Origin: Candidatus Avigastranaerophilus sp.
GTDB taxonomy: Bacteria; Cyanobacteriota; Vampirovibrionia; Gastranaerophilales; Gastranaerophilaceae
Assembly: GCA_045538205.1 (NCBI GenBank)
Contig: JAZSQW010000003.1
Location: 1-47,829, forward strand
Length of the DNA: 47,829 nt
Direction of reading: 5' to 3'
The notes under the pieces were generated by a model. That model had not been told where the DNA came from and searched no databases. It saw nothing but the letters and a program-made list of their open reading frames with translations. Every line of letters begins with the position of its first letter. The first letter of the stretch is position 1. A program made the translations under genes and the position numbers. Positions 18,435-45,314 of the stretch are shown here, piece by piece.

Positions 18435-18456
18435 ACCATATAATATAAACAAATAA

Positions 18457-18490
18457 TGCCAGCCTACAGTTAAGTAAGCTGGCATTTTTT
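18457..18490. terminator. bidirectional rho-independent terminator
   Basis: TGCCAGC-loop-GCTGGCA with TTTTTT on the + side and a T-rich run on the - side. Confidence 0.75.
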
Positions 18491-18581: not shown

Positions 18582-18596
18582 AGTGTTAGGTTTAAG

Positions 18597-18667: not shown

Positions 18668-18772
18668 ATATTTAACGAATACTTATCTGATTAAGTCTAT
18701 CAAGCCAGTTAAGGTAGTACTGGCTGTTTTTATCTGGGTATTGTTGCTGGTATGAATCCACCAGCCTTAATA

Positions 18773-19240
18773 TCATTTCTCCGATTTCTTCCATATACCA
18801 TTTATCTTTATGAACTTAGTACCCTTTTCTTTGGGTATCAGTAGTATATTCTTCATCTTCTTTCCTGTATTAATGGCTGTAGTCCTATTACAGTAGAAGC
18901 TATCAGTAGTAGCGTATTTACTAATGGTGAAAGTGCTGTACCAGTAACAGGAATCTTCACCAAAGAAGCAAATGTAAAAGGCTGCATCTAAACCCTTATC
19001 TTTCTTATCCTGTACCAAAGCATTAAACTTATCCACTTCCATAAGGTGTGTATCATAATCTTCATACTGCTGGCTTCTTACTTTGATTTCGGCTACTATG
19101 CCTTTATCTTTGAGTTTGAAATAAAAATCTACAGGGTTAAATTCATCTTCTGTGGGCTATAAGTCTGTAGCTTTCATCTATCCCAACAGTTCACTTAAAA
19201 GGCTTCTACCCTTCTATTCGGATTCAGTAAATTTATTCAT
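18773..19240 (-). CDS. PD-(D/E)XK / Hjc-like nuclease candidate (recoded, 3 in-frame TAG)
   Basis: Extends track ORF 18773..19042 upstream through TAGs at comp. 19214-16, 19178-80 and 19157-59 to an ATG overlapping the upstream TGA (ATGA). Reads MNKFTESEQKGRSLLSELLGQMKATDLQPTEDEFNPVDFYFKLKDKGIVAEIKVRS... (D...E-x-K). Confidence 0.65.
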
Positions 19241-19818
19241 AATATAATATCGGTTATATGTGGTTGTTCTTCTTTTATATCTTCTTTGGGTTCTTTGGCT
19301 AAGTAGTGACACTTGTAATATAGCCTACCCTTTGTAATATGTCCCTTATCTTCTAATTGCTTTAAGTATTTGCTGGTAGTTTGTCGGGTAATACCCATTC
19401 TATTAGCTATGCCTTCTATGGTGGTTTCTGCTATATCATTTATTCCTATTTCCGCTATCAGTTGTAGGTAAATCAGTACACCCTTTTCTTTTGGCTTCAG
19501 TTCCTGTACAAGTAAATCTGGATTCAACATCAAAAAATCTTTGGACTTTGGTAATGTGTATTCATTAAATACATAATCATTCACTTCTGATTTAAGCTGT
19601 ATGTAGTCCAGAAAGCCGTTTGTTTTTAATCTCTTTACAGCATCTTCCACTTTGCTTAGTGCTATGTTGTATTTGTCTGCTATAGTCCTTAATCCTATTC
19701 TGGATTTGTGTGTAGTGCTATCCTTTTGAAAGTCTATAGCTGCATATACCAGTACATCTATGAATTTAGTTCCTGTTTTCAATGCCAGAAATTTTCTTGG
19801 TATTTGAATAAACCTCAT
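19237..19818 (-). CDS. tandem winged-helix DNA-binding protein (replication initiator or regulator)
   Basis: Two wHTH-like segments (LRTIADKYNIALSKVEDAVKRLKTNGFL; IANRMGITRQTTSKYLKQLEDKGHI). No TAG; TGA stop. Confidence 0.65.
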   Translation of the reverse strand: MRFIQIPRKFLALKTGTKFIDVLVYAAIDFQKDSTTHKSRIGLRTIADKYNIALSKVEDAVKRLKTNGFLDYIQLKSEVNDYVFNEYTLPKSKDFLMLNPDLLVQELKPKEKGVLIYLQLIAEIGINDIAETTIEGIANRMGITRQTTSKYLKQLEDKGHITKGRLYYKCHYLAKEPKEDIKEEQPHITDIIL

Positions 19819-19957
19819 AGTTTGCCGATGTAGGATTATTAGTTAAAATAAAATCTTCTGTGAACTTGAACAATCTGTTAAATAAGCCAGTACCAAAGTG
19901 TATTTTGGCTTCTTTTCGGTTCTGGAACACCTGCCCAGTTGGTTTGTAAATAATCAT
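19766..19957 (-). CDS. small hypothetical protein, first gene of the leftward operon
   Basis: 63-aa ORF overlapping the next gene by 52 nt. No TAG. Confidence 0.45.
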   Translation of the reverse strand: MIIYKPTGQVFQNRKEAKIHFGTGLFNRLFKFTEDFILTNNPTSANYEVYSNTKKISGIENRN

Positions 19958-20044
19958 TCGTTTTTCTTCAAATTTGGTTAGTTTGCTAATCTAAAAATGA
20001 AAATTCATCTAAAAAGAGTGCCTAAAGTCGTAATGTTAAATTTT

Positions 20045-20098
20045 GGGTACTATTCCATACAAAGGTATTTTTGATGTATGGATATGTACCCATTTTTT
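20045..20098 (+). terminator. long hairpin plus T-run (GGGTAC..TCCATACA..TGTATGGA..GTACCC ATTTTTT)
   Basis: Read directly. No annotated + gene upstream, so possibly a small-RNA end. Confidence 0.4.
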
Positions 20099-20114
20099 AA
20101 CATTGACCTTTTAT

Positions 20115-20143
20115 GATAAGATTTCGTTTGAATCTTATCTTTT
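20115..20143 (+). terminator. 9-bp hairpin GATAAGATT-TCGTTTG-AATCTTATC followed by TTTT
   Basis: Read directly. Confidence 0.4.
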
Positions 20144-20353
20144 CGGCTAAGTGAGCCTTTGAAAATTAAAATTATGAGTAGCTTTTTGTAACTGTAATCT
20201 TCTGATTATCATCTATACAAGTATATTCACAATTCTGGGCGATTCCAAATAAATATAGCGGAATCTTTGTTTGGCTGGCTGGTATGCCGCTAATCTCTGC
20301 CAGGCACTGACCGACCTGCCGAGCCAACCGAAATTTGGCGAAAAGAAGCCGAT

Positions 20354-20764
20354 TTAGTCCGCTGGGGTACTTTCCACCGTAATAGCCGCTTTTCTACCCT
20401 GCTGTAGATTACTTTTTAGTATAGAAGTTAGTAATGTTTCATATTTGGTGGAATTGAGAACTTTACCCTTCACTTTGTTTTCACCTACCAGAATACAGCC
20501 ACTGGTATCATTTGGAGTATTACCACGGTGTATTAGTATTCCTTCAAAGTTTGGCACATTAAGTAATCTGGGTAAATCCCTTTTGAATTTGGGCGATCTG
20601 TTTACTATGACTTCATAAGTGCCTTCTGGAATGGCTGTTTTGTGCATTATCTTCTTTTCTCTTACGGTATCTTCCAACGTATCACAGAAGTACTACCCAT
20701 CTATATAAAGTCTGCCTATTGTGTAATCTGTTTTTTGTGCTATTCGTTTTAAAAGTAGATTCAT
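20354..20764 (-). CDS. DUF5675-like / YkuD-fold putative cell-wall hydrolase (recoded, 1 TAG)
   Basis: Track ORF 20354..20677 extended upstream through one TAG: [23 protein letters not shown][TAG][12 protein letters not shown]... Motif [19 protein letters not shown] resembles the H...SxGC L,D-transpeptidase-fold site. Confidence 0.65.
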
Positions 20765-20790
20765 TTGTTTGTCAATACATTAATTATGAG

Positions 20791-20798
20791 TAATTTTG
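20791..20798 (+). promoter_or_regulatory. -7 box TAatTTTG
   Basis: 22 nt upstream of the ATG at 20820. Confidence 0.45.
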
Positions 20799-20819
20799 CA
20801 GCATATAAATAAAAGCAGG

Positions 20820-21341
20820 ATGAAAACTTATCTATTTGACACATTCAACAGATATAAAAGATTCAGTGAAAAACTGGATGCTAAGACTATTCTTTGTAAT
20901 AAATCTTGGTGGGTGTTTAATGATTCTGGAGAAAAAGAAGTGTATATTTTTAATACAGATGGTTCTTTAATTATATCCGTATCTGGTAAGGTGACAAATG
21001 CCACTTGGAAGTATATTCCTGCAAATAAATCTATCATTATTGCCGCTGGTGAAGAATCTTATATGGTTATTCCTGCTTTTGTGGATAGCAATATATTAGC
21101 TCTACAGATAGATGGTACTGATGAATTTGCTTTTCTGATTGATGAACAGAATATACAGAAATTCCTGCCTAAAACTTTATTAGAAGTACACCAATATTTT
21201 GAAGACAAGGAAGCAAAAGAAATTGAAGCTAAAATTATTAAAGAAAGAGAATTGAAAGAAACAGAACAAACAGATAAAAGGCTTGTTATCTGTCTTTTTA
21301 TTCTTGCAGGTGTGTGTGTTCTTATTGAATTATTATTTTAA
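20820..21341 (+). CDS. C-terminally membrane-anchored hypothetical protein (TAG-free island inside the recoded block)
   Basis: MKTYLFDTFNRYKRF... with C-terminal TM segment LVICLFILAGVCVLIELLF. TAA stop. Confidence 0.65.
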   Translation: MKTYLFDTFNRYKRFSEKLDAKTILCNKSWWVFNDSGEKEVYIFNTDGSLIISVSGKVTNATWKYIPANKSIIIAAGEESYMVIPAFVDSNILALQIDGTDEFAFLIDEQNIQKFLPKTLLEVHQYFEDKEAKEIEAKIIKERELKETEQTDKRLVICLFILAGVCVLIELLF

Positions 21342-21624
21342 AATGTAATTTCTAATGACATTCTTTGCAAAGGCTTTGCAAATTATGAAAGTCGTATGCC
21401 TTTTGTAATCTCATATTTCCTGTATAATTCATAAAACTATCTATGTGGTGAACATCTACAGCAGGTTTCACTATACCAGCCTGTAGGCACTATTCACAAA
21501 GTGGATTTGCCATTAGCTTTGCCTACCTTAGTTTCTTCCATTTTGCAGACTGATACACCTTCTGTCTATCCTGCCTGTTAAATGTTCTGGATTTCTGCTT
21601 TGATGGCTTCTATAAAGTTGGCAT
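21322..21624 (-). CDS. phage HNH endonuclease (recoded, 4 in-frame TAG; alternative start at 21648)
   Basis: Invisible in the track. Own translation: ...RQDRQKVYQSAKWKKLR[Q]AKLMANPLCE[Q]CLQAGIVKPAVDVHHIDSFMNY...NLQSLCKECH[Q]KLHFK. Ends in TAA and overlaps the 3' end of the convergent gene 20820..21341. Confidence 0.75.
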
Positions 21625-21967
21625 TTGTTGTAGGTGTTGGTTCTTCATATTCGGTATCTGGAAAATCTTTATCTTCTATTGGTATCACCATATAGTTTGT
21701 AACCTTACTATCTCTATAATATGCACCCTTTAATAAGTTGAAGTAGTATTTGTACTACTATATAAAGTCCTTATCTGGGTTGTAATTGTATGTCAGTTTA
21801 AGATAAGTATCATTAAATATATCTTCATCCGTTTCTGACTTCACCAGCATAGAATGTAACTGCTGGTAGTGTTTGGTAAGTAGTCTGCTTACTTCTGGGT
21901 TATATAGGGCTTTTTCTACATTAACCTACATTCTTTTCCACTAATCCCAGTTATTAACCTGCTGCAT
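21578..21967 (-). CDS. hypothetical protein, 129 aa (recoded, 4 TAG including a tandem TAG-TAG); weak sigma region-2-like pattern
   Basis: MQQVNNWD[Q]WKRM[Q]VNVEKALYNPEVSRLLTKHYQQLHSMLVKSETDEDIFNDTYLKLTYNYNPDKDFI[QQ]YKYYFNLLKG...IQNI, TAA stop. Confidence 0.6.
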
Positions 21968-22127
21968 TGTTATACTTCTTAATGTAATCTGAAATAAAGT
22001 ATCTTACAAGTTTAGCTTTTGGTAGCTGTAAATCTTTAGACATTCTGTTTAGTTCCTAATCTTGGTTAGGGGTTAATCTTACAGTGATTCTGTTACTTTT
22101 GTTCTTTGTTTTATCGGTATTTCTCAT
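21954..22127 (-). CDS. ribbon-helix-helix (Arc/MetJ-like) DNA-binding protein, 57 aa (recoded, 1 TAG)
   Basis: MRNTDKTKNKSNRITVRLTPNQD[Q]ELNRMSKDLQLPKAKLVRYFISDYIKKYNNAAG, TAA stop. Confidence 0.6.
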
Positions 22128-22154
22128 ATCCATTAATTTATAGGTTTATATAAA

Positions 22155-22162
22155 CAAATATA
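22155..22162 (-). promoter_or_regulatory. -7 box TAtaTTTG (minus strand) for the RHH-HNH block
   Basis: 28 nt upstream of the ATG at 22127. The 22128-22282 gap is a divergent control region and possibly the cos region. Confidence 0.4.
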
Positions 22163-22282
22163 TTCTTTGCAGAAGTGTTCCCAAAATATTTTTATCTGAT
22201 TTTTTATTTGGCTGCCATATAACTGTATTATTAATGAAAAACGAATTAACAAACTGATTATTAACAATAAAACTAATTATTT

Positions 22283-22660
22283 ATGGCAAAATTTAAGATA
22301 CCTACAGACATTGAAAAGGATGCAGTGGAATATATGAAGAATGTGCTGCAACAGTTAGAAGATAACGGTGTTTTGGAAAATGTAGATAGTGCTGCATTAA
22401 CAATGCTGGCCAGAAACTACAGTATGTTTATCAAAGCATCCAAATAGCTTGAAAAAGATGGATTAACAGTAACCAGTGACAGGGGAAACATAGCACCCCA
22501 CCCAGCTATAAAGATTGCCAAAGATGCACAAATACAGGCTATGAAAGTAATGGCAGAATTTGGGCTTACTGCCAAAGCCAGAACCAAATTAAAGATAGAT
22601 AAGGCAGATGAAGATTCACCGTTTGAAGCGTTTGTAAAGGCTGGTAAAGAAGTTAGATAA
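22283..22660 (+). CDS. terS: terminase small subunit, P27 family (recoded, TAG at 22445-22447)
   Basis: MAKFKIPTDIEKDAVEYMKNVLQQLEDNGVLENVDSAALTMLARNYSMFIKASK[Q]LEKDGLTV...HPAIKIAKDAQIQAMKVMAEFGLTAKARTKL. TAA stop overlaps the next ATG (TAATG). Confidence 0.8.
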
Positions 22661-23277
22661 TGGGCAAATTAAAGAAGAATCCTATTCTGGATGATGCAGG
22701 TAAGATTATAGGGTATGAAGCACCAACAAAGGATATACAGATAATGGTATGTGACAAGAAAGAAGCGGATGCCATAATTATAGCAAACCACTATTCACAC
22801 AAAGCCACAAAGAACAGCTTTCTTTCTTTTCTGGTGTATTACAAAGATAAGGTAGCTGGGGCTTTACAAGTCGGTTATGGAATCCGACCAAAGAAAAAGG
22901 GTACACTGAATCCAGACGAAGTTAGGGAATTTGATAGAATGTGGCTATCTGATGAAATGCCGAAATATTCGGAAACTATCACTTTATCCCTGCTACACCA
23001 TTATCTAAGGAAAGTACACCCAGAAGTAAAGTATCTGATTAGCTATGCAGATAACAGTAGTGATGTAGGCAATGAAGGGACTATTTATAAGGCTGCAAAC
23101 TACAAACTGATAGACAAAGTAAAATCCGATTTCTACATACTTGAATCTGGTGAACGAGTACACCCAGTAACGATGTGGCACAGACACGGAACAAGAAAAT
23201 GGGCTTTCCTACAGTAGCAGTACCCCAACATTAAAAAGGCTGATGGATTCCAGATGAAATACCTGTTTGAATTATGA
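22660..23277 (+). CDS. Mom-like GNAT-fold DNA-modification protein (adenine methylcarbamoylation family), recoded (TAG at 23215-23217)
   Basis: ANHYSHKATKNS...REFDRMWLSDEMPKYSET...LISYADNSSDVGNEGTIYKAANY matches the family pattern as I remember it. TGA stop in an ATGA overlap with terL. Confidence 0.6.
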
Positions 23278-24893
23278 AGTATTATCAATATGCAGAAGAT
23301 GTAATAAATGGAAAGATAGTAACAGGCAATGCCATTAAGTTAGCCTGTAAACGGTTTTAGGATGATTTGCTAAGGGATGATTTGGAATTTAGGGAAGATA
23401 AGGTAGAAAGAGCCATACAGTTTATAGGTACACTGAAACACTTTACAGGCAAACACAGTGGTAAGTGTTTCAAGTTGGAAAGCTGGCAACAGTTTATAGT
23501 AGCCAATATAGTAGGCTGGTATTATAAAGGCACTAATAACAGAAGATTTACCAGCAGTTACATAGAGGTAAGCCGAAAACAGGGTAAAACTGCTTTGGCT
23601 GCTGCTTTGTGCCTTTACTACCTTATTGCAGATGGTGAAGATGGTGCTGAAGTACTTTTGGCTGCAAACAGTAAAGATTAGGCTAAGATTGCTTTTGATA
23701 TGTGCAGCAAGTTTACAAAGGGGTTAGATCCCAAAGGAAAGTATCTTACTGCTTACAGGGCTGATATTCTATTCGGAATGACGAACAGCAAACTGAAAGT
23801 ACTGGCTGCTGATGATTCTAAATTGGATGGCTTTAATGCCAGCTTTGGCTTATTGGATGAATACCACGCAGCAAAGAACAGCAAAGTAAGAGACGTTATA
23901 AAGTCCAGTATGGGAATGAGACAGAATCCCCATTTATGTACTATTACCACTGCTGGCTTTGACAAGTCTTTGCCCTGTTACCAGCTAAGAAGTGTAGCCA
24001 TAGAGATTTTGAACGGACTAAAGACAGATGATGAAATGTTTATAGCCATATACAGTTTAGATGATGCTGATGATTGGAGGGAAGAAAAGAACTGGGTTAA
24101 ATGTGCTCCGAATTTGGATATTACTGTTACCAGAAAGTATATAAAAGGACAAGTTCAACAGGCTATTAATAATCCTGCTGATGAAGTTGGGGTAAAGACC
24201 AAAACACTTAATCTGTGGTGTGACAGTTCTAATGTGTGGCTACCAGAAGAATACATTATCAAAAGCAGTCAGCAGGTGGAACTGGAAAAGTTTTCTGGAA
24301 TGGATTGTTATATAGGTGTGGATTTGGCTGCTACCAGTGACTTAACAGCAGTTTCTTATTTGATTGTTTCTGATGGCAAATATTACTGGAAAACCCACTA
24401 TTATCTTCCAGAATCGGCACTTATTGAAAAGGCAGACAAAGAATTGTATAAATACTGGAAGCAGATAGGGATATTAACTGTGACCAGTGGAAATGTTACG
24501 GATTATGACTACATTACTAATGACATTATGAAGTATGCAGAAATAGTGAATATACAGGCTGTAGGGTATGACAAATACAATGCAACACAATGGGCTATAG
24601 ATGCAACAGCAGAAGGTTTGCCATTAGAAGAATATCCGCAAACATTAGGTAATTTCAATATGCCGACAAGGGAACTGGAACGGCTGGTTATGTCTGATAG
24701 GGCTGTAATTGATAATAATGAGATTACCCGATTCTGTTTCAGAAATGTAGTGCTTAAATCCGATTATAACGGTAATGTAAAGCCGAATAAAGCAATAGAT
24801 AAGAAAAAGATAGATGGGGTAATAGCTATGATACAGGCATTAGGAATGTACCTTAGAATCCCACATTACAGTAATGAAATAACAACTATTTGA
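23274..24893 (+). CDS. terL: terminase large subunit (recoded, TAG at 23358-23360 and 23679-23681)
   Basis: Three same-frame pieces joined. ...KQGKTALAAALCLYYLIADGEDGAEVLLAANSKD[Q]AKIAFD... (Walker A-like region plus KDQA motif), nuclease half in 23700..24893. TGA stop. Confidence 0.9.
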
Positions 24894-26102
24894 ATGAAGA
24901 TAGGTAACTTAGAAATTAATTGGAACAAACAGCCAGTAGTAGAAGAACGTAGTTTCTTTGATTCTTTGATGTATAACAGTAATGGTAGTTACAGCACTAA
25001 TAAGGCTATGCTTTTATCTACAGTTTACAGGTGTGTAGATGTAATCAGCGATTCAGTAGCCCAGTTACCATTAGAACCATATTACAAAGATAAGTTTGGC
25101 TATAAGATGAAATTTGTGGATCATCCTACTTACTACCTGCTTAACAAAGAGCCAAACGGCAAAATGAGCAGATTTACCTTTATAAAGACTTTGGTAGTAA
25201 GTGTATTACTAAATGGTAATGGATATGCCTATATAGAACGAGATAATAAAGGTGATGCTATATCCCTATAGTATATCCCTTCAGAATATGTTACCATTAC
25301 TGAAGTAAAGAACGGTATCAAATACAGTGTGGTAGGTATCAAAGGGCTGGTAGAACCCTGTAATATGATACACCTTCTTAACTTTAGTTATGATGGCATT
25401 AAGGGTATCAGTACATTAACCCACGCAAGGCAGACTTTAGGACTTTCAGCAGACAGTGAAGCCCACGCTACAGGATTCTTCAAAGGTGGTGCAAATCTGG
25501 CTGGTATATTGAAAGTACAAAGTATATTAACTGGCAAACAGAAAACAGACTTAAAAACAAGCTGGCAGACTGCTTTTAGTCCTACAACTGGTACACCCAA
25601 CGGAGTAGCAGTACTTGAAGGAAATATGGACTTTTAGCCCATTACAGTAAACCCTGCTGATGCACAACTGTTAGAAACCAGAGAATTTAACGTAATTGAT
25701 ATTTGTAGGTTCTTTGGGGTATCACCAGTTAAAGCATTTGATTTGAGTAAATCCAGTTACAGTACAGTAGAAGCTACACAACTGGCTTTCCTCACTGACA
25801 CCTTAGCACCCTTATTAGAAAAGATTGAACTGGAATTTGAACGGAAACTGTATAAACCATCCGAAAGAAAGAATATTGAAGTAAGATTTGATACTTCTGT
25901 ACTGCTTAGAGCCGACAAAGCAAGTTTAGCCAGTTATTATAATACACTATTCCAGATTGGAGTGATAGCACCTAATGAGATTAGAAGGGAATTGGATTTG
26001 CCAGCCTTGGAGAATGGAGATAAGACCTTTGTACAAGTGAACGTACAAACTTTGGAAAATGCAACAAATAACATTAAAGATGAAGGAAACACGCAGCTTT
26101 AA
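24894..26102 (+). CDS. portal protein, HK97 family (recoded, TAG at 25269-25271 and 25635-25637)
   Basis: Track ORFs 24894, 25329 and 25743 share one frame. Colinear portal pattern (...GGANLAGILKV...VLEGNMDF[Q]PITVNPADAQLLETREF...). TAA stop. Confidence 0.85.
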
Positions 26103-26631
26103 AATTGAACCATTAAAAGAAGATAGCAGAACCATAGAAGGCTATGCTATTGTATTTAATGCTGAATCCAGAGACTTAGGAGGGTTCACGGAATAGATAG
26201 AACCTACAGCTTTGGAAGGCATTATAGAAAAATCTGATATTCTTTGCCTTCTTAATCACAATGAAGATAGAGGTGTTTTAGCCAGAAGTAAGTTTGGTGA
26301 AGGCAGTTTGGAACTGATGGTAGATGACATTGGACTTATGTACAGATTTGAAGCACCTAATACGGCTTTGGGGGATGAACTGTTAGAAGGCATTAAGAGA
26401 GGTGATATTAGTACCAGTAGCTTTGCCTTCACTGTAGAAAAAGATACTTGGATTAAAAAGGATGATGGCAGTTATTTACGGACTATCAATAGCTTCAAAG
26501 AATTGTTTGATGTATCACCTGTATATAAAGAAGCCTACCCAGATACCAAAGTAGCGGTAAGAAAGATGCAGGATATGGAATCTGAAGGGCTTAAATCTTA
26601 CTTTGATGAACTTAAAAAGAAATTGGTATGA
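26080..26631 (+). CDS. prohead serine protease, HK97 family (recoded, TAG at 26194-26196)
   Basis: MKETRSFKIEPLKEDSRTIEGYAIVFNAESRDLGGFTE[Q]IEPTALEG...LLNHNEDRGVLARS... TGA stop in an ATGA overlap. Confidence 0.8.
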
Positions 26632-27800
26632 ACACATTAGAGTTATTGGATAAGAAACAGCAACTGAAACAGAAGGCAGAAGAACTGATAGCAGGTGCTG
26701 AAACTGCTGTAAGAAAATTGAATGAAGGGGAACAGGCAGAATTTGAATCTATCCTTAAAGAGATAGAAGAAACAGATGCACAAATTAGAAAGATAGAAAC
26801 AGAGAATTTAAAGCAAACAACAAGTAAAAGAAGTATGGAAAAGTTTTCATTATTGAAGGCTATTAACGATGTAGCCAACAACAGACAATTAGACGAAAGA
26901 GCACAAGAAGTAGTTAATGCTGGTATTTCTGAAATGCGTAAAGCAGGACAAAACTACAGTGGATAGATTGTATTACCGATGGAAGTAAGAGCCGATATTC
27001 AAGCTACTGTAGAAGGTGCAGGACAAGAAAACGTAGCTGAAGATAAGTTAGGAATCTTAGAGCCATTAAGAGCAAATTTAGTATTGGTTAATGCTGGTGC
27101 TTCATATATGACAGGCTTACAGGGTAATGTTTCTATTCCTGCTTATTCAGGTTCAAATGTCACTTGGGAAGGTGAAGTAGCAGATGCCAAAGATGGTGCT
27201 GGCACATTTACAGAAGTGAACTTAGAGCCAAAGAGATTAACGGCTTATATTGATGTATCTAAGCAGTTCTTGATTCAAGACAGTAACAGTGCAGAAGAAA
27301 TGCTTAAACGTGATATTGTATCTGCCATTAGCAACAAATTGGAAGCAACTATTTTAGGTACTGAAGCTGGTTCTGCTACTATGCCTGCTGGTATGTTGAA
27401 CGGTGTTTCTGCTGATTCTGCTGCTATCACTTACGAAGATATTGTAGGTATGGAAGCCGAATTAGAAAAGGAAAATGTAAGAGGTGACATTAAATTCATT
27501 GTATCACCATCCGCAAAAGCCACTTTAAAGACTACTAAAATTGATGCTGGTTCTGGTAAGTTCGCTATGGAAGGTAACGAAGTAAACGGTTATCCAGTGC
27601 TTTGTACTTCTGCTGTAGCTGATAAGGGTGTTATCTATGGTAACTTCAGTGATTTGGTAATAGGACAATGGGGAGGTATAGATCTTACTGTAGATCCTTA
27701 TACACAGGCTGCTAAGGGTAAGGTAAGATTAGTGATTAATGCCTACTTTGATGCCAAACCACGCAGAGCAGAAGCATTTGTAAAGAAAGTGTTAGCTTAA
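26628..27800 (+). CDS. major capsid protein, HK97 fold (recoded, TAG at 26964-26966)
   Basis: N-terminal delta-like coiled coil followed by ...NYSG[Q]IVLPMEVRADIQATVEGAG... and a long capsid body. TAA stop. Confidence 0.85.
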
Positions 27801-27826
27801 TACAGTTTGTTAATAATAAGTAAGCT

Positions 27827-28129
27827 ATGTATTTGACTTTGGAACAAGTGAAGAAACATCTACTTATAGATGATGATTTTGTAGCGGATGATTCATATAT
27901 TACAGACTTGATTACTGTAGCACAGGATTCAGTTTCACAGCATTTAGACATAGCTTTGGAAGAATTAGAAGCAGGTGGGACTTTGCCACCTGCTGTAATT
28001 CACGCTATGTTATTAATGATTGGAAACTTATATACCAACAGAGAACCTGTAACAGTCGGTTCTGTGGTTAAGATTCCCTATACTTATGAATATCTGGTAG
28101 GACTTTACAAACACTATGAAATAAAATGA
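27827..28129 (+). CDS. head-tail connector (gp6-like)
   Basis: MYLTLEQVKKHLLIDDDFVADDSYITDLI... is a typical gp6-like start. No TAG. Confidence 0.7.
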   Translation: MYLTLEQVKKHLLIDDDFVADDSYITDLITVAQDSVSQHLDIALEELEAGGTLPPAVIHAMLLMIGNLYTNREPVTVGSVVKIPYTYEYLVGLYKHYEIK

Positions 28130-28437
28130 GGGCTGGCAGTTTACGTTATCCGATAATCATACAGAAGCCTGTAGCCATTAAAAATGAATATGGTGCTACT
28201 ACTAATAGCTGGTAGGACTATATACTAACAAGGGCTGATATTCGGTTTGATTCTGGCAACAGGCTTAATGAAAACAGTGAGATTATCCACAGCTATACAA
28301 AGACTTTCATAGTAAGACACTACCACCCTATTACAGAGAATATGCGGATTATATACAAGGGTAAGAAGTACAGAATCCTTTGTATCAATCCAGAGACATT
28401 AAAGCAGACAATAATAACGGAGTTAATCAATGAATGA
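28126..28437 (+). CDS. head-tail adaptor / head closure protein (recoded, TAG at 28213-28215)
   Basis: Not in the track. MRAGSLRYPIIIQKPVAIKNEYGATTNSW[Q]DYILTRADIRFDSGN... ATGA overlaps at both ends. Confidence 0.7.
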
Positions 28438-28936
28438 CACAATTACAGTAGATGCCAAACAGGTACTGGACTTATTCAAAGAACTGGATAGCAGGAAACA
28501 GAAGAAAGCCTACAGAAACGCTTTAAGAAGTGCTGCCAACATTCTTACTAAGGAAACTAAGCGGTAGCTTAAATCCAGACTGGGGAAAGCTGCCAACAGT
28601 AAAAACTGGTGGAACGGTAAGACCTTAGTAAGTGGTGTTAAATCCAGTGCCGACAAAGAAGGGACTGAATCAAAGGTACACATTATGGGGGACTTCAGAT
28701 TAAAGTTCTTTGAAATGGGTACATAGGAACGATTCACCACAGGCAGTAACAGTGCCAGTGTAAGGGGAAAAGACCCAGTAAGAAGGCAGAAAGTACCAGC
28801 AAGCAGGGGTAAAATCACAGCATCCTACTTTTTCAGAACAGCCAAAGAACTTAAAGAAAAAGAAGTGTTTGATAGTATGAACAGGCTGCTTTCTTAGTCT
28901 ATTGTAAGAGTAGCCAACAAACATAAAGGCAAATGA
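28430..28936 (+). CDS. HK97 gp10-family tail-completion protein (recoded, 3 TAG)
   Basis: Not in the track. ...YRNALRSAANILTKETKR[Q]LKS...FFEMGT[Q]ERFT...LLS[Q]SIVRVANKHKGK. TGA stop. Confidence 0.7.
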
Positions 28937-29319
28937 ATTTACAAGTAGGAAAAGCCATATTCAGTATTCTAAGTAATGATGCTGATTTGGTGGAAAAGGT
29001 GGAAAACAAAATATATCCGTTAATAGCAGATGTAAATACTACTTTCCCTTTTATTGTTTACAGAAGAAACGGTATTGAACCATTAAACAGCAAAGACAGA
29101 TTCACAATCAATACCACGACATACATAAGCATAGTAGTAGCTTCTGATAAATATGATGAAAGTATAGAGATAGCGGAAAGAATTATTAAGGCTTTAAGTA
29201 AGGGAACATATTAGGGGATAATGGATATAAGTTTAGTAGATGCTGATGAAGATTATATAGATGATACGTTTATTTAGACTTTAACTTATAACATAAAGAC
29301 TGATGGCAAATATAATTAA
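28933..29319 (+). CDS. tail terminator-like protein (DUF3168-like) (recoded, 2 TAG)
   Basis: Track ORF 28933..29214 extended through TAGs at 29212 and 29275 to the TAA at 29317. Overlaps the next gene start by 17 nt. Confidence 0.6.
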
Positions 29320-29845
29320 CGGTGGTGATTTGATGTTTTTTATTAACGGAAAATCTGTAGCATTTGCTACAAGCCACAAACTGACAATTAATGCAGAGAC
29401 AGTAGAAACTTCAAGTAAAGATAGCGGTGGTAAATGGGTTACAAAATCGGTTAAGAAATTGAGTTGGAACGGTACAACAGAAAACCTTTATTCTAATGAT
29501 GGTGAAGGGGTAACTTTTGATACCTTGTTTGATTTGATGGTAGCCAGATAGCCTATTGATGCTGTATTTGCTTTGGAAGGTAACAGTTCAGATTATGCAG
29601 AAAACAAATTGGATGAAGTCCCTACAGACGGTTGGACTGCTGTAAGTGCAGGCACTAAGACTGGCAAAGTAATTATCACTTCATTAGAAGTAAATGCACC
29701 TAATGGGGATAATGCTACTTTCACCTGTAACTTTGAAGGTGTTGGGGCTTTGGTGAAAGATGGTGAAACTACTTCTGACGGAACAGGTAATACAGGTTCT
29801 TCTGGAAGTGGAACAAGTAATGATGATGGGAACAATCCTTTGTAA
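29303..29845 (+). CDS. major tail protein, TP901-1/phi13-like (recoded, TAG at 29549-29551)
   Basis: ORFs 29303 and 29573 share a frame. ...FATSHKLTINAETVETSSKDSGGKWVT... with a Gly/Ser/Thr-rich C-terminus. TAA stop and a terminator follow. Confidence 0.75.
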
Positions 29846-29851
29846 TCAAAC

Positions 29852-29888
29852 AGCCCTTTACACCTAATGAGGGTGTAAGGGGCTTTTT
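29852..29888 (+). terminator. rho-independent terminator after the major tail gene
   Basis: AGCCCTTTACACC-loop-GGGTGTAAGGGGCT followed by TTTTT. Confidence 0.7.
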
Positions 29889-29902
29889 AACTTTAACAGA
29901 CT

Positions 29903-30199
29903 ATGGAAATAATTATTATAAACAAACCGTATAAACTCAAATACACATTAAGAGCCTTATTTATCTATGAACAGATAACAGGTAAGGCTTTCAATCTCAA
30001 AACTATCACAGATGAATATTTGTTCTATTACTGTATTCTGGCTGCAAATAACCCAGAAATGGAAATGACCTTTACTGATTTCATTGATGCCATTGATGAA
30101 GATTACAGCATTATAGCGACATTCCAGAAGTTCTTAAAGCAGGAAATAGAGAAACAGAATATCTTCATTACAGATACGGACATTAAAAAAAAGTCTTGA
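29903..30199 (+). CDS. tail assembly chaperone (gpG-like)
   Basis: Position between the major tail and tape measure genes. 98 aa. Ends just after the slippery site. Confidence 0.7.
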   Translation: MEIIIINKPYKLKYTLRALFIYEQITGKAFNLKTITDEYLFYYCILAANNPEMEMTFTDFIDAIDEDYSIIATFQKFLKQEIEKQNIFITDTDIKKKS

Positions 30200-30513
30200 C
30201 CACTAAGGAAATATATTCATTACTGGTTCTGGAAGGTGGTTTGTCCCCAGATTATGTATTAGACAAAATGCAGATGTACGAACTGGAAGCCTTAATAAGC
30301 AGCCTTTACCAGAAGAACAGGGAAAGCTGGGAGCAGACAAGGCTACTGGCATACATACTGGCACAGGTGAACAGTACTAAGAAACTGAAGCCTTCAGACA
30401 TTCTTAGTTTTGTTTGGGACAATGATAATAAGGGTAACACTTCCATTAGTAATGAAGATGTAAAGAGATTAAAAGAAAGAGCAAAACAATATACAAGTAA
30501 ATATAATGGCTGA
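29903..30513 (+). CDS. tail assembly chaperone frameshift product (gpGT-like)
   Basis: A -1 shift at 30187-30193 joins frame 2 to frame 1. The downstream ORF has only a TTG start of its own. Confidence 0.55.
30187..30193 (+). other. programmed -1 frameshift slippery heptamer A_AAA_AAG
   Basis: The 0 frame reads ATT AAA AAA AAG TCT TGA. The -1 frame is open from 30187 into ORF 30196..30513. Confidence 0.65.
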
Positions 30514-35352: not shown

Positions 35353-35354
35353 CT

Positions 35355-37985: not shown

Positions 37986-37987
37986 CG

Positions 37988-38182
37988 ATGAAAAGAATAA
38001 CAGTAAGAATAACAGAAGCAAAGTGTGACGGTCAGCAGATGGCAGTGATACACAATCTGGAAAGTGACTGTGAACAGGTATATGAACTGAACAGGATTAT
38101 GCACGCTTTAGCATTTACACAGATAACAGTAGAACAAACAAATAAAGGGTTTACTTATGTGTTCCCTTTAAAACTATAGTAA
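37988..38182 (+). CDS. small hypothetical protein ending ...PLKL-TAG-TAA
   Basis: ATG at 37988. TAG at 38177-38179 is followed directly by TAA, so the product is nearly the same in either code. Confidence 0.5.
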
Positions 38183-38185
38183 TAT

Positions 38186-41100
38186 ATGAAACTGAATATA
38201 GGAACAAAATACACAGGGGATTATCTTACAGCAGAAGAATTTAACCAGTTAGTCAGTGCCATAAACAATTACAAGTTAGGGGAACTGACTAACGTAAATT
38301 CCACTGTGGATGAAGATGTAGAAGATGATTGTGTACTGGTAAAATATGCTGGTGAAGATACTTTTACCCTAAAGAGACTGGCAGAGATAACCACACCAGT
38401 AATAGGGCTACAAAGATACATAGCTTTGCAGAATAATATGATTAGTAAGAATGTGGCTGTAAGTAAGGGTGATAACTGTTTGTTGGATTTCACCTTTGTT
38501 TCACAGGAAAGATATTCTTCAGCAGACAAATACACTAACACAGATGAAAGGGGACTTTTGTAGGTAGCCATTAAGAACAGTACATACAGTGAATACACCA
38601 TAGTTAAGCAGGTGTACATAAACAGTGCAGAACCTACCAAACTGGATATAACGGAATATCTTACTTCCAGTTCTAATAGTGTTATGCTGAAATGTGAAGG
38701 GGAAGTTACAGGGGAAACTACTTCGGCTTTGGTTTATACGGTAACAGTAACTACACTGGGTATCAATGCGGATAATTTCAGATGGTGGTAGCCTTATTCT
38801 GGTGATATAGCCATACCATTCATTATTAGCGGTAACATTACAAAGAAACTGTTTGTGACGGTAACAGGCAATGGATATAACACTTCTTATGAAGAAAACT
38901 TAGGTACTACCACTTACACAGAAACACCGTATAACTACACAGTACCCAGACCTACAGCAGATGGAGTTTATAAGATTACGGCTTATGTAAGTAATCTGGA
39001 TGAAACATTAGTGACAAAGCAAGTTTCATTTAATGTTATTGTAGCTTCCACTGGTTCACAGAAAAAATATCTGGTTGTAAATAACGTGAATACAACCATT
39101 AAGAACTATTCGGAAAACAATGTATTGGAATATGCCGTTTATGATGGGGATTCCAGTACTACAGATTTGAACTTTACTATAGTTCTGGAAGGGAAACAGG
39201 TTTATCTATCTACTGAAGATGCAGCACCTACACAAAGCAGAAACAGCTTTACCTATCAAGCGGAAATAGAGTATGAAAGCAATTCCAATTTTGAAGTAAC
39301 TTTGGCTATTGGTGATGATGTCACAAAGAATCTGGTAACCCCCATTTCTTTAGTGGTGGATAACAGCTATTCATTTGGAAGTACAGCAGGTGCTACATTC
39401 TATATGAACCCCAGAACCAGAAGCAATGCACAAAGCAACAGGACAAAGATAGTGAATGAAGTAACTGGTGAAGAAATTGCAGCTACTTGGACTAACTTTA
39501 ACTGGGGTAATGATGTATGGCAAACAGACGATGCAGGGAACAGGGTACTTAGGGTAATGAGTAATGAAAAGCTGGTAATGGACTATTACCCATTCAAGAC
39601 AGAAGCAGCCCGAAAAGGTAAGACTATAGAAATTGATTATTTGGTAGATAATGTAATAGACTACAGCCAGCCTGTTATACAGATGTGCAGCAGTGAAGAT
39701 GAATATACAGGATTGAGAATCACCCCAGATAATATTTGCCTGTTATCCCAGTCACTGAAGAACAAGATTACACAGGCTACCAATACCGACACAGGAAAGA
39801 GAATCAGACTAACAGTAGTGATTATGCCTACAGCTTATGGAAATGCTGACTTTAATTTGGCTATCCTGTATATCAATGGTAAGAAGAACAGGGAATTTTC
39901 ATACGCTACCAATGATTATTTTGCATAGAGTTCACCAGTAACTATAGGTTCAAACTTTGCTGATGTCGATGTTTACGGAATAAGAATGTATGATATGGCA
40001 CTTACTTCATAGCAGGTGCTGAAGAACTATATAAACTGGCTTACTGACAATGCAGAGAAAGAGCAGGTAAACACTGCTAATGATGTGTTGGATATTACAG
40101 GTACGGAAGTAGATTTTGATAACACCATAGACCAGTATAACATTATGGTATTTGACAATGATTTGCCTTCTTACTTAGACCCCAACGAAAAGAAGGGTAC
40201 TTTGTCTATCTACTTCTATGAGCACCCAGAAAGAAACGTATCAATCAGTAATGTAAAAGCCAGTGGTTAGGGTACATCTTCAAAGAAGTATTTCAGATGG
40301 AACACGAAGTACAAACTGGATAAGGAAAAAACGGTTATCACTTATGCCGATGGTACAACAGGTACAAAGAAATGGCAAATGACACCAGATGTACCTGCTG
40401 CCAGTGTATTTACTGCCAAAAAGAATTTTGCATCTTCTATGCAATCTCATAAGATGGGTAGTGTTAATTCGGTGGATTTACTCTATAAGGAACTGGGGCT
40501 TACTAACGAAGCTATGGAACTGGATTCTACAAAGAGAATAGCCGTTTACCAGATGCCGTTTATAATGTTTACAAAGTCGGTAAATGAAGAGGGGGACACC
40601 GTTTATAGGTTTGAAGGTGAATATACTTTTGGTGCAGATAAAGGGGATGAAAATACTTTTGGCTATGATACTGACAAGTTCCCCAGATTGATAAGTATAG
40701 AAGGTTCTGATAATTCACCACTGCCAGCCCTGTTTAGGATTCCTTGGAGTAGCAGGATGCAGTATAATGAAGATGAAGAGGCTTTTTAGTACAACGGTTA
40801 GAACTGCTGGGATTTTGGAGGTGGAGAGGTAGAGAATATAGATTTATGGATTCCTGCCTATAATCTGGCTTATGAATGTAGCAACAGAATACGACCTTTT
40901 AACGGTACACTGGATGAACTAAATGCCGATGTAGTGACCTATAGAAGTTCTGGGTATGATTACTGGATAGCTAAAGAAGGTGATGCCAACCAATATAACC
41001 AGTACTACTATGAGAGTTCAGAAGGCAGGTTTATAGGGGCTGATACTGGTAACGGTACTATCAATCTGCTTACATAGTTGGCAGATTACATAGACACTGC

Positions 41101-44074
41101 CAGTTTTTCCGCTTTGAGCAATGAGGAAAAGAACAGTTTGTTTATCACTTCCAGAATAGCCAAATTTAGGGATGAAGCACCTACATACTTTGACATTACA
41201 GATGCCATATTTCACAGGAACTGGATAGAAGTTCACGCTGGTACAGACCAGAGAGCAAAGAACACTTATCCCTATTGCTTTGGTGATGGGTATAAATGGA
41301 AATGGCGGTTTGATGATATGGATACAATCTTTGACACCGACAATCAAGGATAGCCACTAAAGAAGTATTCTGTAGAAGTACAGGATGAAGGGGTTTGGAA
41401 CGGACAAACCAGCAACTTCTGGAACTTGATAGATTTGGCATACCCAGAGGAAATACATAATGAAATGACTGCCTTTTTAAATGCAATGGAAACACTGGGG
41501 GGATTGAATGTAGGGGATGATTACGGCAAACTGTATGCCTACTTCAAACGGTTCTATTTAGACAATTCACAGTATTTCCCTGCTGCCGTAGTTAATGCTG
41601 ATACAAAGTACTGCTATGAGACTGCCAAACTGAATACGCAGTATGTGAATGATACAGACCCGATGACACAGGCACTGGGCGATCATTATTCTGCTGAAAG
41701 TGCTTGGATAAGCAAACGTATCAATTACATAATGAGTAAGTACAGCTATGGTAATTTCAGTGCTCACGGTAACGATACTATCATAGTCCGTGCAGCAGGT
41801 GATTTGATTAACTACCAGCTTACACCAGCCATAGATTTGTACCCGAATATAGCTAATGGTACTTCCATAGTGAGAGGTAACAGAACTTATGCAGGTGATA
41901 CTACTGTTATGACTATTGATTTGGGTGGTAGTGCAGACCAGCAGAACATTATACAGGGTGCAAGTTGGTACAGTTCTATAGGTGACTGGCACGACAAGAA
42001 CGTAAAGGGAACTATGACTATACAGGGTAAGAGATTACAGGAACTTGTATTAGGCAGTAAGACAGATGATATAACCATAAAGATAGATGCCTTAGAAGTA
42101 AAATCTACCTGTAAATCATTACAAAGCATCCTTCTTAGTAACATATCCACTTTGAAGGGTAATCTGGATTTGTCGGGGTGTACACATTTAAGGGAAATAT
42201 ACGCAGATGGTACGGCACTTTCACAGATAATACTTCCAAAGGGTTCACTGGAGCACATAGAATACCCAGATACCAGCCAGTATTTGAATCTGTAGAACTA
42301 TCCGCTTTTGACTTATGATAATGTAAAACTGGGTAATAGTATAGGTAATATCAATGATATGATAATAACTGCCTGCCCATAGATGTAGCCTGTAAGGATG
42401 CTTAGTGACATTATCAGTGAAGATAACCATTCTTTGAAGCGTATAAGGCTAACAGATTTTAATGAAGTGTTTGATTCTTCCAATGGTTCTAAGGTGTTGG
42501 ATAATCTGGCTATCCTTACAAATGGTAACTATACTGGACTGGATGCAAACGGCATAGAGATAGAAGGCAGTTATCCGTTTCTGGATGGTACTATAACGGT
42601 AAACTGTAACTGCTATGAAGATTCTGTAGAAGCATTAAGAAGCAAGTTCAACAGATTAACTATTAATGTGAACGGACAATATTACATTAGATTCAAAGAC
42701 CAGCAGACACAGGATTATATAGTAGGTTTGTGGGGGGATGGCAAAGGGGTAACAAAAAGTGCGTTGAAACCTTTAACCAGTTCCTATTATGGTACTTTGT
42801 TCTTTGCTTATGTAAGTAATGGCACAGCAGATGGAAAACCTACTGACGATAGATTATTAAGACCTATCAGTATGAATTATGAACTGGGAGAATACTTTGA
42901 TGAATTGAAGTACTTTACAGGGTGTGAAAGGGTTACGATGTATAATACAAGGTTAAAAGGGGCTATATTCCCTGCTTAGTTAAATAATGCTTCTGGGCCA
43001 AAGATAGCTGTGGCAGGATCTACTGTAGAATATGTCAAATATATGGACGGTGAATAGAATTTGACGGTTTCATTTGATAATAACTATTCAATACAGCAAA
43101 CTATAGAATTACTATATTTGCCACATAATGTAGTAAATATGGCTGATTATGTTTTCAGAAGTGTAAGCTATGGAGAATTTTATATAGCTGCCACTACACC
43201 ACCTGTAATGAAATGGGGATATGGCAGTAGTGTTAATGCTGTAAAGGGCAAAGTGTATATTCCTGTAGGTGCAAAAGCAACTTATGAAGCTGCTACATAT
43301 TGGAGTAACTTTGTAGATAAGTTTGAAGAATATGATTATGATTCAGATGGAAGGGGTGTTATTCCGTATATGGAATATACCAAAGAACTTACAGGATTAA
43401 CCAGTAGCTATAGAAAGGGGTATATAGAAACAATACTGACACCCAGAAACGCTGTAAGAGATTTGGTGTATGAATCAAATGTAGATAATTTCGTAAAGGT
43501 TAGTAAAACAGGAAAACTTACTTTTGGGAACTTTGGTACTTCACAGGTGAAGGTTTACAATTCATATAAGCCAGAACTTTTTTCCACTATAACACTATCT
43601 GTAGAAAAACCTGCTAATGGGTATTATTCATACAACGCACCTATAACATTTGATACAGGTATTCCACTTACATTAAATACTAAGATGTATATGAAGTTTA
43701 ACAACTTCCAGAAGTCTATAATGATGGGATTATGTGGTACTGCTTGGAATAGTAGTAATGGTATGTACTTTAATTCCAATAGTACAACATAGCTAAGATT
43801 CATTAATAACGGTATCACTACAGTTAATGTTACTGCTGGTGAACCTTTGGAAGTCCTGTTTGAAAATGGTAAGGTTACAGTTAATGGTACAGAATATACA
43901 TTAGGTGTAAGAACAGAATCTGCTACTGGTACTATTAAGCTATTTAATAATAACTATGCTATGGATGAACCTAATTTCATTGGTGATATGTATGAGATAA
44001 AAATATATGAAGGTGATGAACTGTTAGCCCATTATGCACCTTCAACAGATGGAACTTTGGTAGAACTTGTATAA
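38186..44074 (+). CDS. giant tail/host-recognition protein, 1962 aa (recoded, 15 TAG), with LRR and BspA-type LRR_5-like C-terminal regions
   Basis: Ten track ORFs (38186, 38855, 40016, 40379, 41078, 41426, 42398, 43061, 43847 and others) all in frame 2. All inter-ORF gaps hand-translated and contain only TAG. LRR-like segment ...LSNISTLKGNLDLSGCTHLREIYADGTALSQIILP... BspA-like segment ...FYIAATTPPVMKW...VYIPVGAKATYEAATYWSNF. TAA stop. Confidence 0.8.
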
Positions 44075-44085
44075 TTGAATGATGA

Positions 44086-44286
44086 ATGACAAAGAACACA
44101 AAACTTAATATTTAGTTGGTATCAGCTTTAATACTGGTAGTGGTAGGCTGTGGACTGCTGATAGCTGGTTTCATTGTAGCACCACTTGGAATAATAGATA
44201 GTAGTGTATTGGTCGCATTTGGTGAAACTTGTACTTTTGCTGGTGCTTTATTCGGCATAGATTATCATTATAAACTAACTAAATGA
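44086..44286 (+). CDS. holin-like two-TM small membrane protein, 66 aa (recoded, TAG at codon 10)
   Basis: MTKNTKLNI[Q]LVSALILVVVGCGLLIAGFIVAPLGIIDSSVLVAFGETCTFAGALFGIDYHYKLTK. TGA stop, then a terminator. Confidence 0.5.
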
Positions 44287-45289: not shown

Positions 45290-45314
45290 ATTATTTATTT
45301 ACAATTATTTATAG

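Follow-up and report, generated by a model that had tools for sequence, protein, structure and literature searches.

TAG-recoded prophages of about 34 kb with TAG-free integrases have been described from Bacteroidetes (Borges et al., bioRxiv 10.1101/2021.08.26.457843), among them the Garnet clade, with a mean genome size of 34 ± 5 kb. The same study (bioRxiv 10.1101/2021.08.26.457843) reports clades in which codes 11, 15 and 4 are mixed, with changes of code over short evolutionary distances; proposes rare TAG stops as a pre-condition for recoding and a lysis-lysogeny lock for the Garnet and Topaz prophages; and, with suppressor tRNAs detected in about 40% of the TAG-recoded phages, suspects non-canonical tRNAs. 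Here we describe a prophage in a 47,829-nt stretch of DNA (contig JAZSQW010000003.1; the whole stretch is called the window). Positions 13766–47413 of the window hold an HK97-like siphophage, temperate and intact, whose host belongs to the Bacteroidales. The phage genome is split between two genetic codes: one set of genes follows the standard code (code 11), whereas the late genes and several genes on the − strand are recoded. Taken as a whole, the account given below is in our view very probable: TAG is read as glutamine in the late genes, the phage brings its own decoder in the form of a tRNA with anticodon CUA (tRNA(CUA)), and the prophage is divided between the two codes. It is a well-resolved member of a described class and not a new phenomenon, as had been recognised in an earlier, sequence-only reading of this DNA, which called the concept already known.

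With the Garnet and Topaz prophages the element shares a small temperate genome in a Bacteroidetes host that presumably follows the standard code, structural genes with TAG as Gln, a TAG-free integrase, a GC content below that of the host, a mixed-code family, rare TAG stops in standard-code relatives and the proposed lysis lock; as regards the Garnet clade itself, the agreement is one of size, host phylum and code only. It differs from the curated Garnet prophage, which is 24.4 kb long and bounded by a host tRNA-Met, in its length of 33.6 kb, its large serine recombinase and its location at an AT core inside a BT4734-like/VirE-like gene; a further point of difference is that its suppressor tRNA escapes default detection. 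The crAss-like and Lak phages using code 15 are cited by Borges et al., and work by Peters and colleagues from 2022 reportedly deals with them as well. The features that they have in common with the window prophage are late genes with TAG as Gln, Bacteroidota hosts with (here presumably) the standard code, an own tRNA(CUA) and standard-code early genes. They are virulent or large (about 100–560 kb), some with release factor 2 (RF2), aminoacyl-tRNA synthetases or tRNA-processing ribozymes, whereas the window prophage is temperate, 33.6 kb long and equipped with one tRNA, neither a release factor nor a synthetase being recognisable in it.

Genes were called as stop-to-stop open reading frames (ORFs) with TAG treated as sense. 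Over 24 genes between 18773 and 44074 there are 65 in-frame TAGs: 51 are internal to the 17 tightly packed genes of the + strand block 22283–44074; 12 fall together in the − strand genes at 18773–19240, 20354–20764, 21322–21648 and 21578–21967; and one each is found in an RHH-like ORF (21954–22133, −) and a 64-aa ORF (37988–38182, +). By construction of the ORF calls, neither TAA nor TGA occurs in frame in these genes, and none of them is frameshifted; the 581 TAA and 516 TGA triplets of the late + strand genes are all out of frame. Every recoded gene stops at TAA or TGA, never at TAG, many of them in ATGA overlaps. ORFs of at least 100 aa occupy 69% of 22283–44074 under code 11; once TAG is sense they occupy 98%, and the longest of them grows from 397 to 1962 aa. 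The corresponding values for the control codes, neither of which creates long ORFs, are 72% (longest ORF 523 aa) with TGA as sense and 85% (longest ORF 397 aa) with TAA as sense. Pfam alignments cross the TAGs in the small terminase (terS), Mom, TerL, portal, S78 protease, capsid, connector and head and tail completion proteins, and also in the HNH and DUF5675 proteins of the − strand. Two independent IMG/VR contigs from other samples (L007 and L008), about 98.6% identical to the window at the nucleotide level, carry the same TAGs at all window positions that they cover (14/14 and 33/33, respectively), which effectively excludes an assembly artefact. The sequence-only reading had given about 66 in-frame TAGs, a count now corrected to 65, and its statement that neither TAA, TGA nor a change of frame interrupts the genes holds. 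Its view that joining across TAG restores colinear phage proteins agrees with the Pfam alignments and with a PHROG family for the major tail protein, and the gain in coverage and ORF length over code 11 is what it had led us to expect.

The TAGs are no closer to the 5' ends of genes than CAA and CAG codons are (p = 0.37–0.45). The following base is C after 30% of the TAGs, compared with 13% after CAA/CAG (p = 0.002); this excess may reflect selection on read-through context.

For the meaning of TAG, a terL-based scan of IMG/VR yielded 80 related contigs with terL 78–99% identical to that of the window, and window TAG columns were mapped to the codons of these relatives via tblastn alignments. 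Columns with at least 10 standard-code homologues, at least 80% of which share one residue, were taken as conserved. The codon counts of the relatives at the window TAG columns are led by CAG (410) and CAA (264), with AAG (111) third. Seven of the 10 conserved columns have Gln as their consensus, namely terS 55, terL 29 and 136, portal 248, capsid 113, position 115 of the gene at 28933–29319, and a seventh column that was counted but carries no name. Since Gln-like codons (CAA, CAG, TAG) make up only about 3–4% of codons in these genes, the enrichment of Gln at TAG columns is very large. Both terL columns have CAG or CAA in the relatives, and the terL TAG at 23679–23681, which had been assigned earlier to a conserved Gln position of the terminase, aligns with Gln in the HK97 TerL (6Z6D, 'SREQAAIVF'). 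At two further sites L008 has TAG where the window has CAG, a direct, synonymous-looking CAG/TAG polymorphism. The homology evidence thus supports TAG = Gln in the recoded genes, as first proposed from terL and now extended to some 80 standard-code relatives; the Gln columns of the relatives, the CAG/TAG polymorphism and the Gln of 6Z6D together make decay, artefact and non-Gln readings very unlikely.

A candidate decoder, not reported in the sequence-only reading, is found here at 18597–18667 on the − strand. ARAGORN with default settings found no tRNA in the window, and filtered Rfam scans gave no tRNA at the gathering threshold (whole window) nor at E ≤ 10 (33-kb island). When the ARAGORN threshold was lowered by 10% (-ps90), only two intron-less candidates appeared in the window, one of which, 72 nt long and with anticodon CUA, lies at 18596–18667 (−) in the 338-bp gap between the HNH gene of the left block and the gene at 18773–19240. 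Searched on this gap alone with the filters bypassed, Rfam RF00005 gives it 42.7 bits (threshold 29; E = 2.8e-8); the filtered Rfam scans had missed it because of the Infernal speed filters and were false negatives. Still lower ARAGORN thresholds were uninformative, with 80 matches in the window at -ps80 and about 1,500 over the 80 relative loci at -ps75.

The tRNA(CUA) folds into a normal cloverleaf in which 15 of the 17 pairs of the acceptor, anticodon and T stems are standard; it has G2-C71, a 7-nt D loop, a 5-bp anticodon stem, a 4-nt variable loop, the T loop UUUGAAU, discriminator A73 and no encoded CCA. In a pattern scan the D arm and the anticodon loop UU-CUA-AC matched phage tRNA-Gln genes, one of which has the loop UU-CUG-AC, a single base from that of the window. 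A covariance model (R1) built from 14 phage tRNA-Gln genes collected by the D-arm pattern scores the window tRNA at 64.8 bits (E = 8e-15), with no other match in the window; as the pattern was taken from the window tRNA itself, only the other arms count as independent evidence. If the D arm and anticodon are disregarded, its nearest neighbours among tRNAs with the same D arm are tRNA-Gln(CUG/UUG), ahead of those for Trp, Gly and Met. It is identical in L008, while the surrounding 600 nt hold 8 differences. The second ARAGORN candidate, 'tRNA-Ser(gga)' at 47272–47344, was rejected, having no Rfam support and 8.4 bits on R1.

The amber suppressor supE (glnV44) of E. coli is a tRNA-Gln changed from CUG to CUA that inserts Gln at UAG in competition with release factor 1 (RF1), and the identity set of E. 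coli glutaminyl-tRNA synthetase (GlnRS) comprises a weak 1-72 pair, G2-C71, G3-C70, G10, U35, A37, U38 and G73. Of this set, which may not be that of Bacteroidales GlnRS, U1·U72, G2-C71, U35 and A37 are present in the window tRNA. It resembles supE in its tRNA-Gln-type body, the anticodon CUA, a 1-72 pair that begins with U1 and is weak or absent, G2-C71, U35 and A37. It is unlike supE in being encoded by the phage and not by a mutant host gene, and in having A73, A10, U3-A70, C38, a U·U pair at 1-72 (U-A in supE) and A19/U56 (G19/C56 in supE); A10 and A73 are the majority bases in the phage tRNA-Gln set. The replacement of G19:C56 by A19:U56 was considered as a tertiary covariation and set aside as suggestive at most; another phage tRNA-Gln has A19 with C56. 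By these features tRNA(CUA) is a predicted supE-like amber suppressor with a tRNA-Gln-type body, presumably charged by the host GlnRS. Theta ribozymes, which are hepatitis delta virus (HDV)-like, adjoin many phage suppressor tRNAs (Kienbeck et al. 2024, PMC10879173); like the tRNAs described there, that of the window has no encoded CCA and belongs to a gut phage of Bacteroidota, and unlike them it lacks an HDV-like match downstream: no HDV-like Rfam family was found at E ≤ 10 in 18540–18720, including the 57 nt downstream of the tRNA, and the base that follows the tRNA is C and not the G1 of theta ribozymes.

A 72-nt tRNA(CAU) is present in the standard-code relatives L020, L021, L041, L045, L046 and L048, on the − strand and 3–5 kb upstream of terL, with the same U1·U72 mismatch and a D arm similar to that of the window tRNA; in L041, L045, L046 and L048 the anticodon-loop positions 37–38 are pyrimidines. 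Descent of tRNA(CUA) from this tRNA(CAU) was considered and rejected: the two are not syntenic, and the body of the window tRNA is closer to tRNA-Gln.

The limits of the prophage are exact. The GC profile sets off an island of 33,648 bp (13766–47413; 33–40% GC) from a host of about 48% GC. The flanks (1–13765 and 47414–47829) carry Bacteroidales-type genes (prolyl-tRNA synthetase, GlnRS at 7588–9333, OmpA-like, TPR, DedA) without Shine-Dalgarno sequences; their ORFs are unbroken under code 11 and contain no TAG, in line with the earlier description of a prophage integrated among intact genes of a standard-code host. As it happens, none of the 11 flanking host genes ends in TAG. The metagenome contig L218, 97–99% identical to the host flanks, is the empty site and joins the equivalent of 13765 directly to the equivalent of 47414; a 782-aa BT4734-like_N (VirE-like) gene that is interrupted by the insertion is whole in L218. 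At the attP junction (...ACGGGAACATTGTTAATACTTGTT-AT-AACAATACTCTATAATGTTCCCGA...) AT forms the crossover core and the phage arms are imperfect inverted repeats. Such inverted arms at both ends fit the attP of a serine integrase and the large serine recombinase encoded at 13834–15345, and the precise junctions together with the empty site establish a precisely bounded prophage of 33,648 bp.

The two parts of the split BT4734-like_N/VirE-like gene lie at 12869–13765 (−) and 47414–47829 (−) of the window. In the conspecific genome contig L217 (GCA_053312455.1) the whole VirE-like segment is missing after the DUF4890 gene, so that the VirE-like gene seems to be part of another host-borne element.

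The division between codes is visible in codon use. Among Gln-like codons, TAG accounts for 51 of 271 (19%) in the late genes and for 0 of 47 in the left block with the lysogeny genes (13834–18434; Fisher p = 1.7e-4); when all TAG-free genes are pooled, which adds 19237–19818, 20820–21341, 44354–45289 and 45498–46388, the p-value is 7e-7. In the right-hand block the gene at 46510–47190 stops at TAG (47188–47190), followed by a hairpin (by eye), and its 66%-identical homologue in L228 likewise uses TAG to stop at exactly the equivalent residue; in the standard-code part of the genome, therefore, TAG continues to serve as a stop. The earlier statement that true gene ends are TAA or TGA is accordingly right for the recoded genes and does not extend to this gene, which lay outside the range that was read. 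With the suppressor active, the 46510–47190 protein would gain 20 residues, through a second TAG, up to TAA 47251–47253, and would thus receive a code-dependent C-terminal extension. Among the stops of standard-code relatives, TAG is used in 28 of 773 (3.6%).

From this arrangement a switch can be proposed. The − strand operon has the tRNA(CUA) gene at its 3' end, with a hairpin downstream at about 18450–18480; the promoter motif TTTG...TAnnTTTG has 11 matches in the window, compared with 2.3 expected, one of them at 22155–22185 before the operon. The unmodified translation of the host would read the integrase, the accessory genes, the replication initiator and the right-hand block, whereas the packaging, head and tail genes and several − strand genes would be translatable only once tRNA(CUA) is made. 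Switched on from the promoter at 22155–22185, the − strand early operon would yield the TAG-free replication initiator and, presumably co-transcribed with it, tRNA(CUA), which would most likely be charged by the host GlnRS, as is the case for supE. The tRNA would then permit translation of the TAG-bearing genes of the operon itself, one of them with a tandem TAG-TAG, and of the whole morphogenesis operon. In the lysogen, morphogenesis and lysis would be translationally locked, and induction would release both; such a lock would be the regulatory purpose of the split code.

Several points weigh against this proposal and against the recoding claim behind it. No promoter-like motif was found before terS or directly upstream of tRNA(CUA), and the latter case bears on the switch. 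The 1962-aa tail protein has 15 TAGs and would need a read-through of more than about 85% per codon for more than 10% of full-length product; we know of no lone suppressor that reaches more than 85% read-through in competition with RF1. The tRNA is AT-rich, has two non-standard pairs (U1·U72 and A31·C39), and lacks G3-C70, G10, U38 and G73 of the E. coli identity set, having U3-A70, A10, C38 and A73 in their place. At three of the 10 conserved TAG columns the relatives have not Gln but Lys, Val and Ala. The use of TAG as a stop on the host side is seen indirectly, in a single host-element gene of L218. The recoding claim itself is made from DNA sequence. The tRNA alone may not be the whole mechanism, and an unrecognised helper may take part.

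This leads to the alternative that survives best, though we think it unlikely: TAG does mean Gln, but tRNA(CUA) plays at most a secondary part in decoding it, and the task falls to a host factor, a modified host tRNA or RF1, or an unrecognised phage protein. The high efficiency per codon demanded by 15 TAGs in one protein fits this alternative, as do the two mismatched pairs of a tRNA that default tools miss, the failure to find a suppressor tRNA in the roughly 20 kb searched per locus in the TAG-recoded relative L216 and in the TGA-recoded relatives, and the detection of suppressor tRNAs in no more than 40% of the genomes with TAG recoding (Borges et al., bioRxiv 10.1101/2021.08.26.457843). 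On the other side, tRNA(CUA) is well over the Rfam threshold when the scan is run without speed filters; it has exactly the required anticodon on a Gln-type body, is intergenic and is invariant between the window and L008, and the tRNAs of the relatives may sit in parts of their contigs outside the stretches searched. Among the window proteins, Pfam and PHROG recognised no RF2, anti-RF1 function, other release factor or aminoacyl-tRNA synthetase, and neither a CCA-adding enzyme nor a DRB0094 ligase was recognised in the prophage.

That TAG is read as another amino acid, or ambiguously (Lys, Tyr, Leu, Trp or pyrrolysine), is less probable again, and we give it little credence. The Lys, Val and Ala columns speak for it, many further TAG columns are variable, and the automatic label given to tRNA(CUA) by ARAGORN is tRNA-Pyl; against this stand the Gln consensus in 7 of the 10 conserved columns at a share of only about 3–4% Gln-like codons, and the CAG/TAG polymorphism between contigs that are 98.6% identical. 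A pyrrolysine system was rejected: the loops and stems of the tRNA are of ordinary size, unlike the tRNA-Pyl shape, and no PylS or PylBCD-like protein is found among the Pfam matches. Nonsense mutations in a decaying prophage, or errors of sequencing or assembly, would account for late genes that are fragmented under the standard code, but this explanation is effectively refuted by 65 TAGs against no TAA, TGA or frameshift despite the many TAA and TGA triplets out of frame, by the same TAGs in two independent metagenome contigs, by proteins 79–85% identical to intact relatives across the TAGs, and by precise att sites with a known empty site.

The features of the prophage are collected in Table 1. 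In the left block, the lipoprotein and membrane-protein genes (16390–17560) are missing or replaced in L008, which is otherwise 98.6% identical; the stretch has the look of a variable cargo (moron) region. A 30-aa hydrophobic ORF (MKTYNRMILEGFIWGAVMAFCIMCILAPIL; 18489–18581, −) separates the tRNA from the terminator-like hairpin at about 18450–18480. The DUF5675 protein had no match in a PDB sequence search aimed at endolysin. The 129-aa protein at 21578–21967 belongs to no Pfam or PHROG family; by eye, its stretch …EDIFNDTYLKLTYNY… resembles sigma-70 region 2, and the protein could be a late-gene regulator. In 27827–30513 the assignments are based on Pfam Phage_connect_1, Phage_HCP and Tail_completion_gp17 and, for the major tail protein, on PHROG 1407; the gp10-like label given earlier to the 168-aa protein at 28430–28936 has no Pfam or PHROG match behind it. 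The 825-aa tape-measure-like protein has no Pfam match, and the tape-measure-like, tail and right-hand proteins are largely without Pfam or PHROG annotation.

Table 1 Features of the prophage and its attachment sites. Positions are those of the window; TAG, number of in-frame TAG codons.
Feature	Position	Strand	TAG	Basis or remarks
attL	13745–13790			Host arm ...GGATTGGTC, AT core 13764–13765, phage arm AACAATACTCTATAATGTTCCCGA
Large serine recombinase (integrase), 503 aa	13834–15345	+	0	Pfam Resolvase, Recombinase, Zn_ribbon_recom
Accessory block: DEDDh exonuclease with BRCT (−); lipoprotein, membrane protein, HNH protein (+)	15382–18434		0	Pfam
Suppressor tRNA(CUA), 71 nt (predicted)	18597–18667	−		ARAGORN -ps90, Rfam RF00005, phage tRNA-Gln model
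155-aa protein, no assigned function	18773–19240	−	3	Homologues in about 40 relatives
Winged-helix replication-initiator or DnaD-like protein	19237–19818	−	0	Pfam HTH; PHROG replication initiation families
DUF5675 protein	20354–20764	−	1	Pfam PF18925
TAG-free gene	20820–21341		0	Codon counts
HNH endonuclease	21322–21648	−	4	Pfam HNH
129-aa protein	21578–21967	−	4	Tandem TAG-TAG at residues 70–71
RHH-like small protein, 59 aa	21954–22133	−	1	Heads the − strand operon
Bacteroides-type promoter-like site (TTTG...TAnnTTTG)	22155–22185	−		22 nt upstream of the RHH ORF
terS and Mom-like protein	22283–23277	+	1; 1	Pfam Terminase_4, Mom
TerL, 539 aa	23274–24893	+	2	TAGs at residues 29 and 136; Pfam TerL_ATPase, TerL_nuclease
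Portal, S78 prohead protease, HK97-type major capsid	24894–27800	+	2; 1; 1	Pfam Phage_portal, Peptidase_S78, Phage_capsid
Head-tail connector, head completion, 168-aa protein, tail completion, major tail, two chaperone-like ORFs	27827–30513	+	7	
Tape-measure-like protein, 825 aa	30506–32983	+	9	Position, size, composition; tblastn matches to relatives
Distal tail and fibre proteins, 790, 876 and 1962 aa	32980–44074	+	6; 6; 15	Phage_fiber_rpt in the 876-aa protein
64-aa ORF	37988–38182	+	1	Ends TAG-TAA; TAG is the last sense codon
Right-hand standard-code block, three genes	44354–47190	+	0 internal	44354–45289, 45498–46388, 46510–47190
ExoX-like_C repeat gene	46510–47190	+		Pfam; stop is TAG 47188–47190
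attR	47385–47430			Phage arm ACGGGAACATTGTTAATACTTGTT, AT core 47412–47413, host arm GTCTGCATCAATC

The relatives found in a terL scan of genomes are prophages of Bacteroides, Parabacteroides, Paludibacter, Rikenellaceae, Tannerella and Muribaculaceae, none of them more than 81% identical; among GenBank phages the family is represented by only two unannotated faecal fragments, and no close characterised phage was found. Nearly all of the 80 IMG/VR relatives are without in-frame stops, so most relatives use the standard code. In-frame TGA at invariant TGG (Trp) columns marks L071, L072, L073, L075, L208, L211, L212, L213 and L215, which we read as TGA→Trp recoded. In L082 and L083, TGA is found only in the homologue of the 18773–19240 gene, at Leu- or Tyr-type columns, and recoding is doubtful.

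L216 (a Muribaculaceae metagenome-assembled genome, CAZSHA010000008.1) carries 45 TAGs in frame; most of them fall on Gln columns that are written CAA or CAG in the window, and only about 7 TAG columns are common to both. No tRNA(CUA) was found within the 21.6 kb searched, a host tRNA-Lys being present at the left edge of the locus. L215, from the cultured strain Bacteroides neonati MS4 (NZ_HG726020.1), carries in-frame TGA five times, in each case at an invariant Trp column. Over the sequenced loci of the recoded relatives (terL ± 10 kb), an unfiltered search with the tRNA-Gln model gave only ordinary tRNA-Ala, tRNA-Lys and tRNA-His. L215 also holds a 94-nt tRNA(UCA) with a long variable arm (9486–9579, +), between the divergent early operon and terS; its best Rfam match is tRNA-Sec (41.7 bits, below the threshold of 47), and a tRNA of Sec or class-II shape would be an unusual choice for a TGA→Trp code. 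The L215 terL is interrupted between alignment residues 284 and 282 by about 1.6 kb of inserted DNA (10846–12428), which could be an intron, an intein, a homing element or damage. L030 (IMGVR_UViG_3300045988_009323) has 6 in-frame TAGs, 4 at Gln-type columns, 1 at an invariant Ala column (capsid 247) and 1 at an invariant Tyr column, together with a genuine tRNA-Ala(UGC) at 417–488 (−).

On a terL neighbour-joining tree, which as a single-gene tree gives no more than an indication, the recoded lineages are interspersed among standard-code ones. We put forward, tentatively and without holding it the likelier outcome, that one Bacteroidales prophage family (terL at least 73% identical on the tree) has changed its code repeatedly and in both directions, with TAG→Gln arising at least twice and TGA→Trp at least twice, and that the single supE-like tRNA of the window lineage is its only code-switch gene. 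The count of at least two for TAG→Gln follows from the TAGs of the window lineage and of L216 standing at largely different Gln columns.

To the described class of recoded prophages the present locus adds a hidden supE-like tRNA together with the reason why it is missed, exact ends with an empty site, a surviving TAG stop, and a family context that includes a TGA-recoded relative in a cultured strain. Because a tRNA of 42.7 bits was dropped by default ARAGORN and by filtered Infernal, the absence of decoders elsewhere may frequently come down to poor detection in AT-rich phage DNA; standard annotation pipelines would break this prophage into about 70 fragments and mis-score its completeness. 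The locus is a minimal, bounded system, with att sites, an empty site, one tRNA, no release factor or synthetase and near neighbours in the standard code, and is suited to testing whether a private code gates the lytic programme. If the proposed history of the family is true, one tRNA would be enough to flip the late genes of a temperate phage to a private code, and the family, partly culturable, would offer a natural setting in which to study the start of codon reassignment and the lysis lock.

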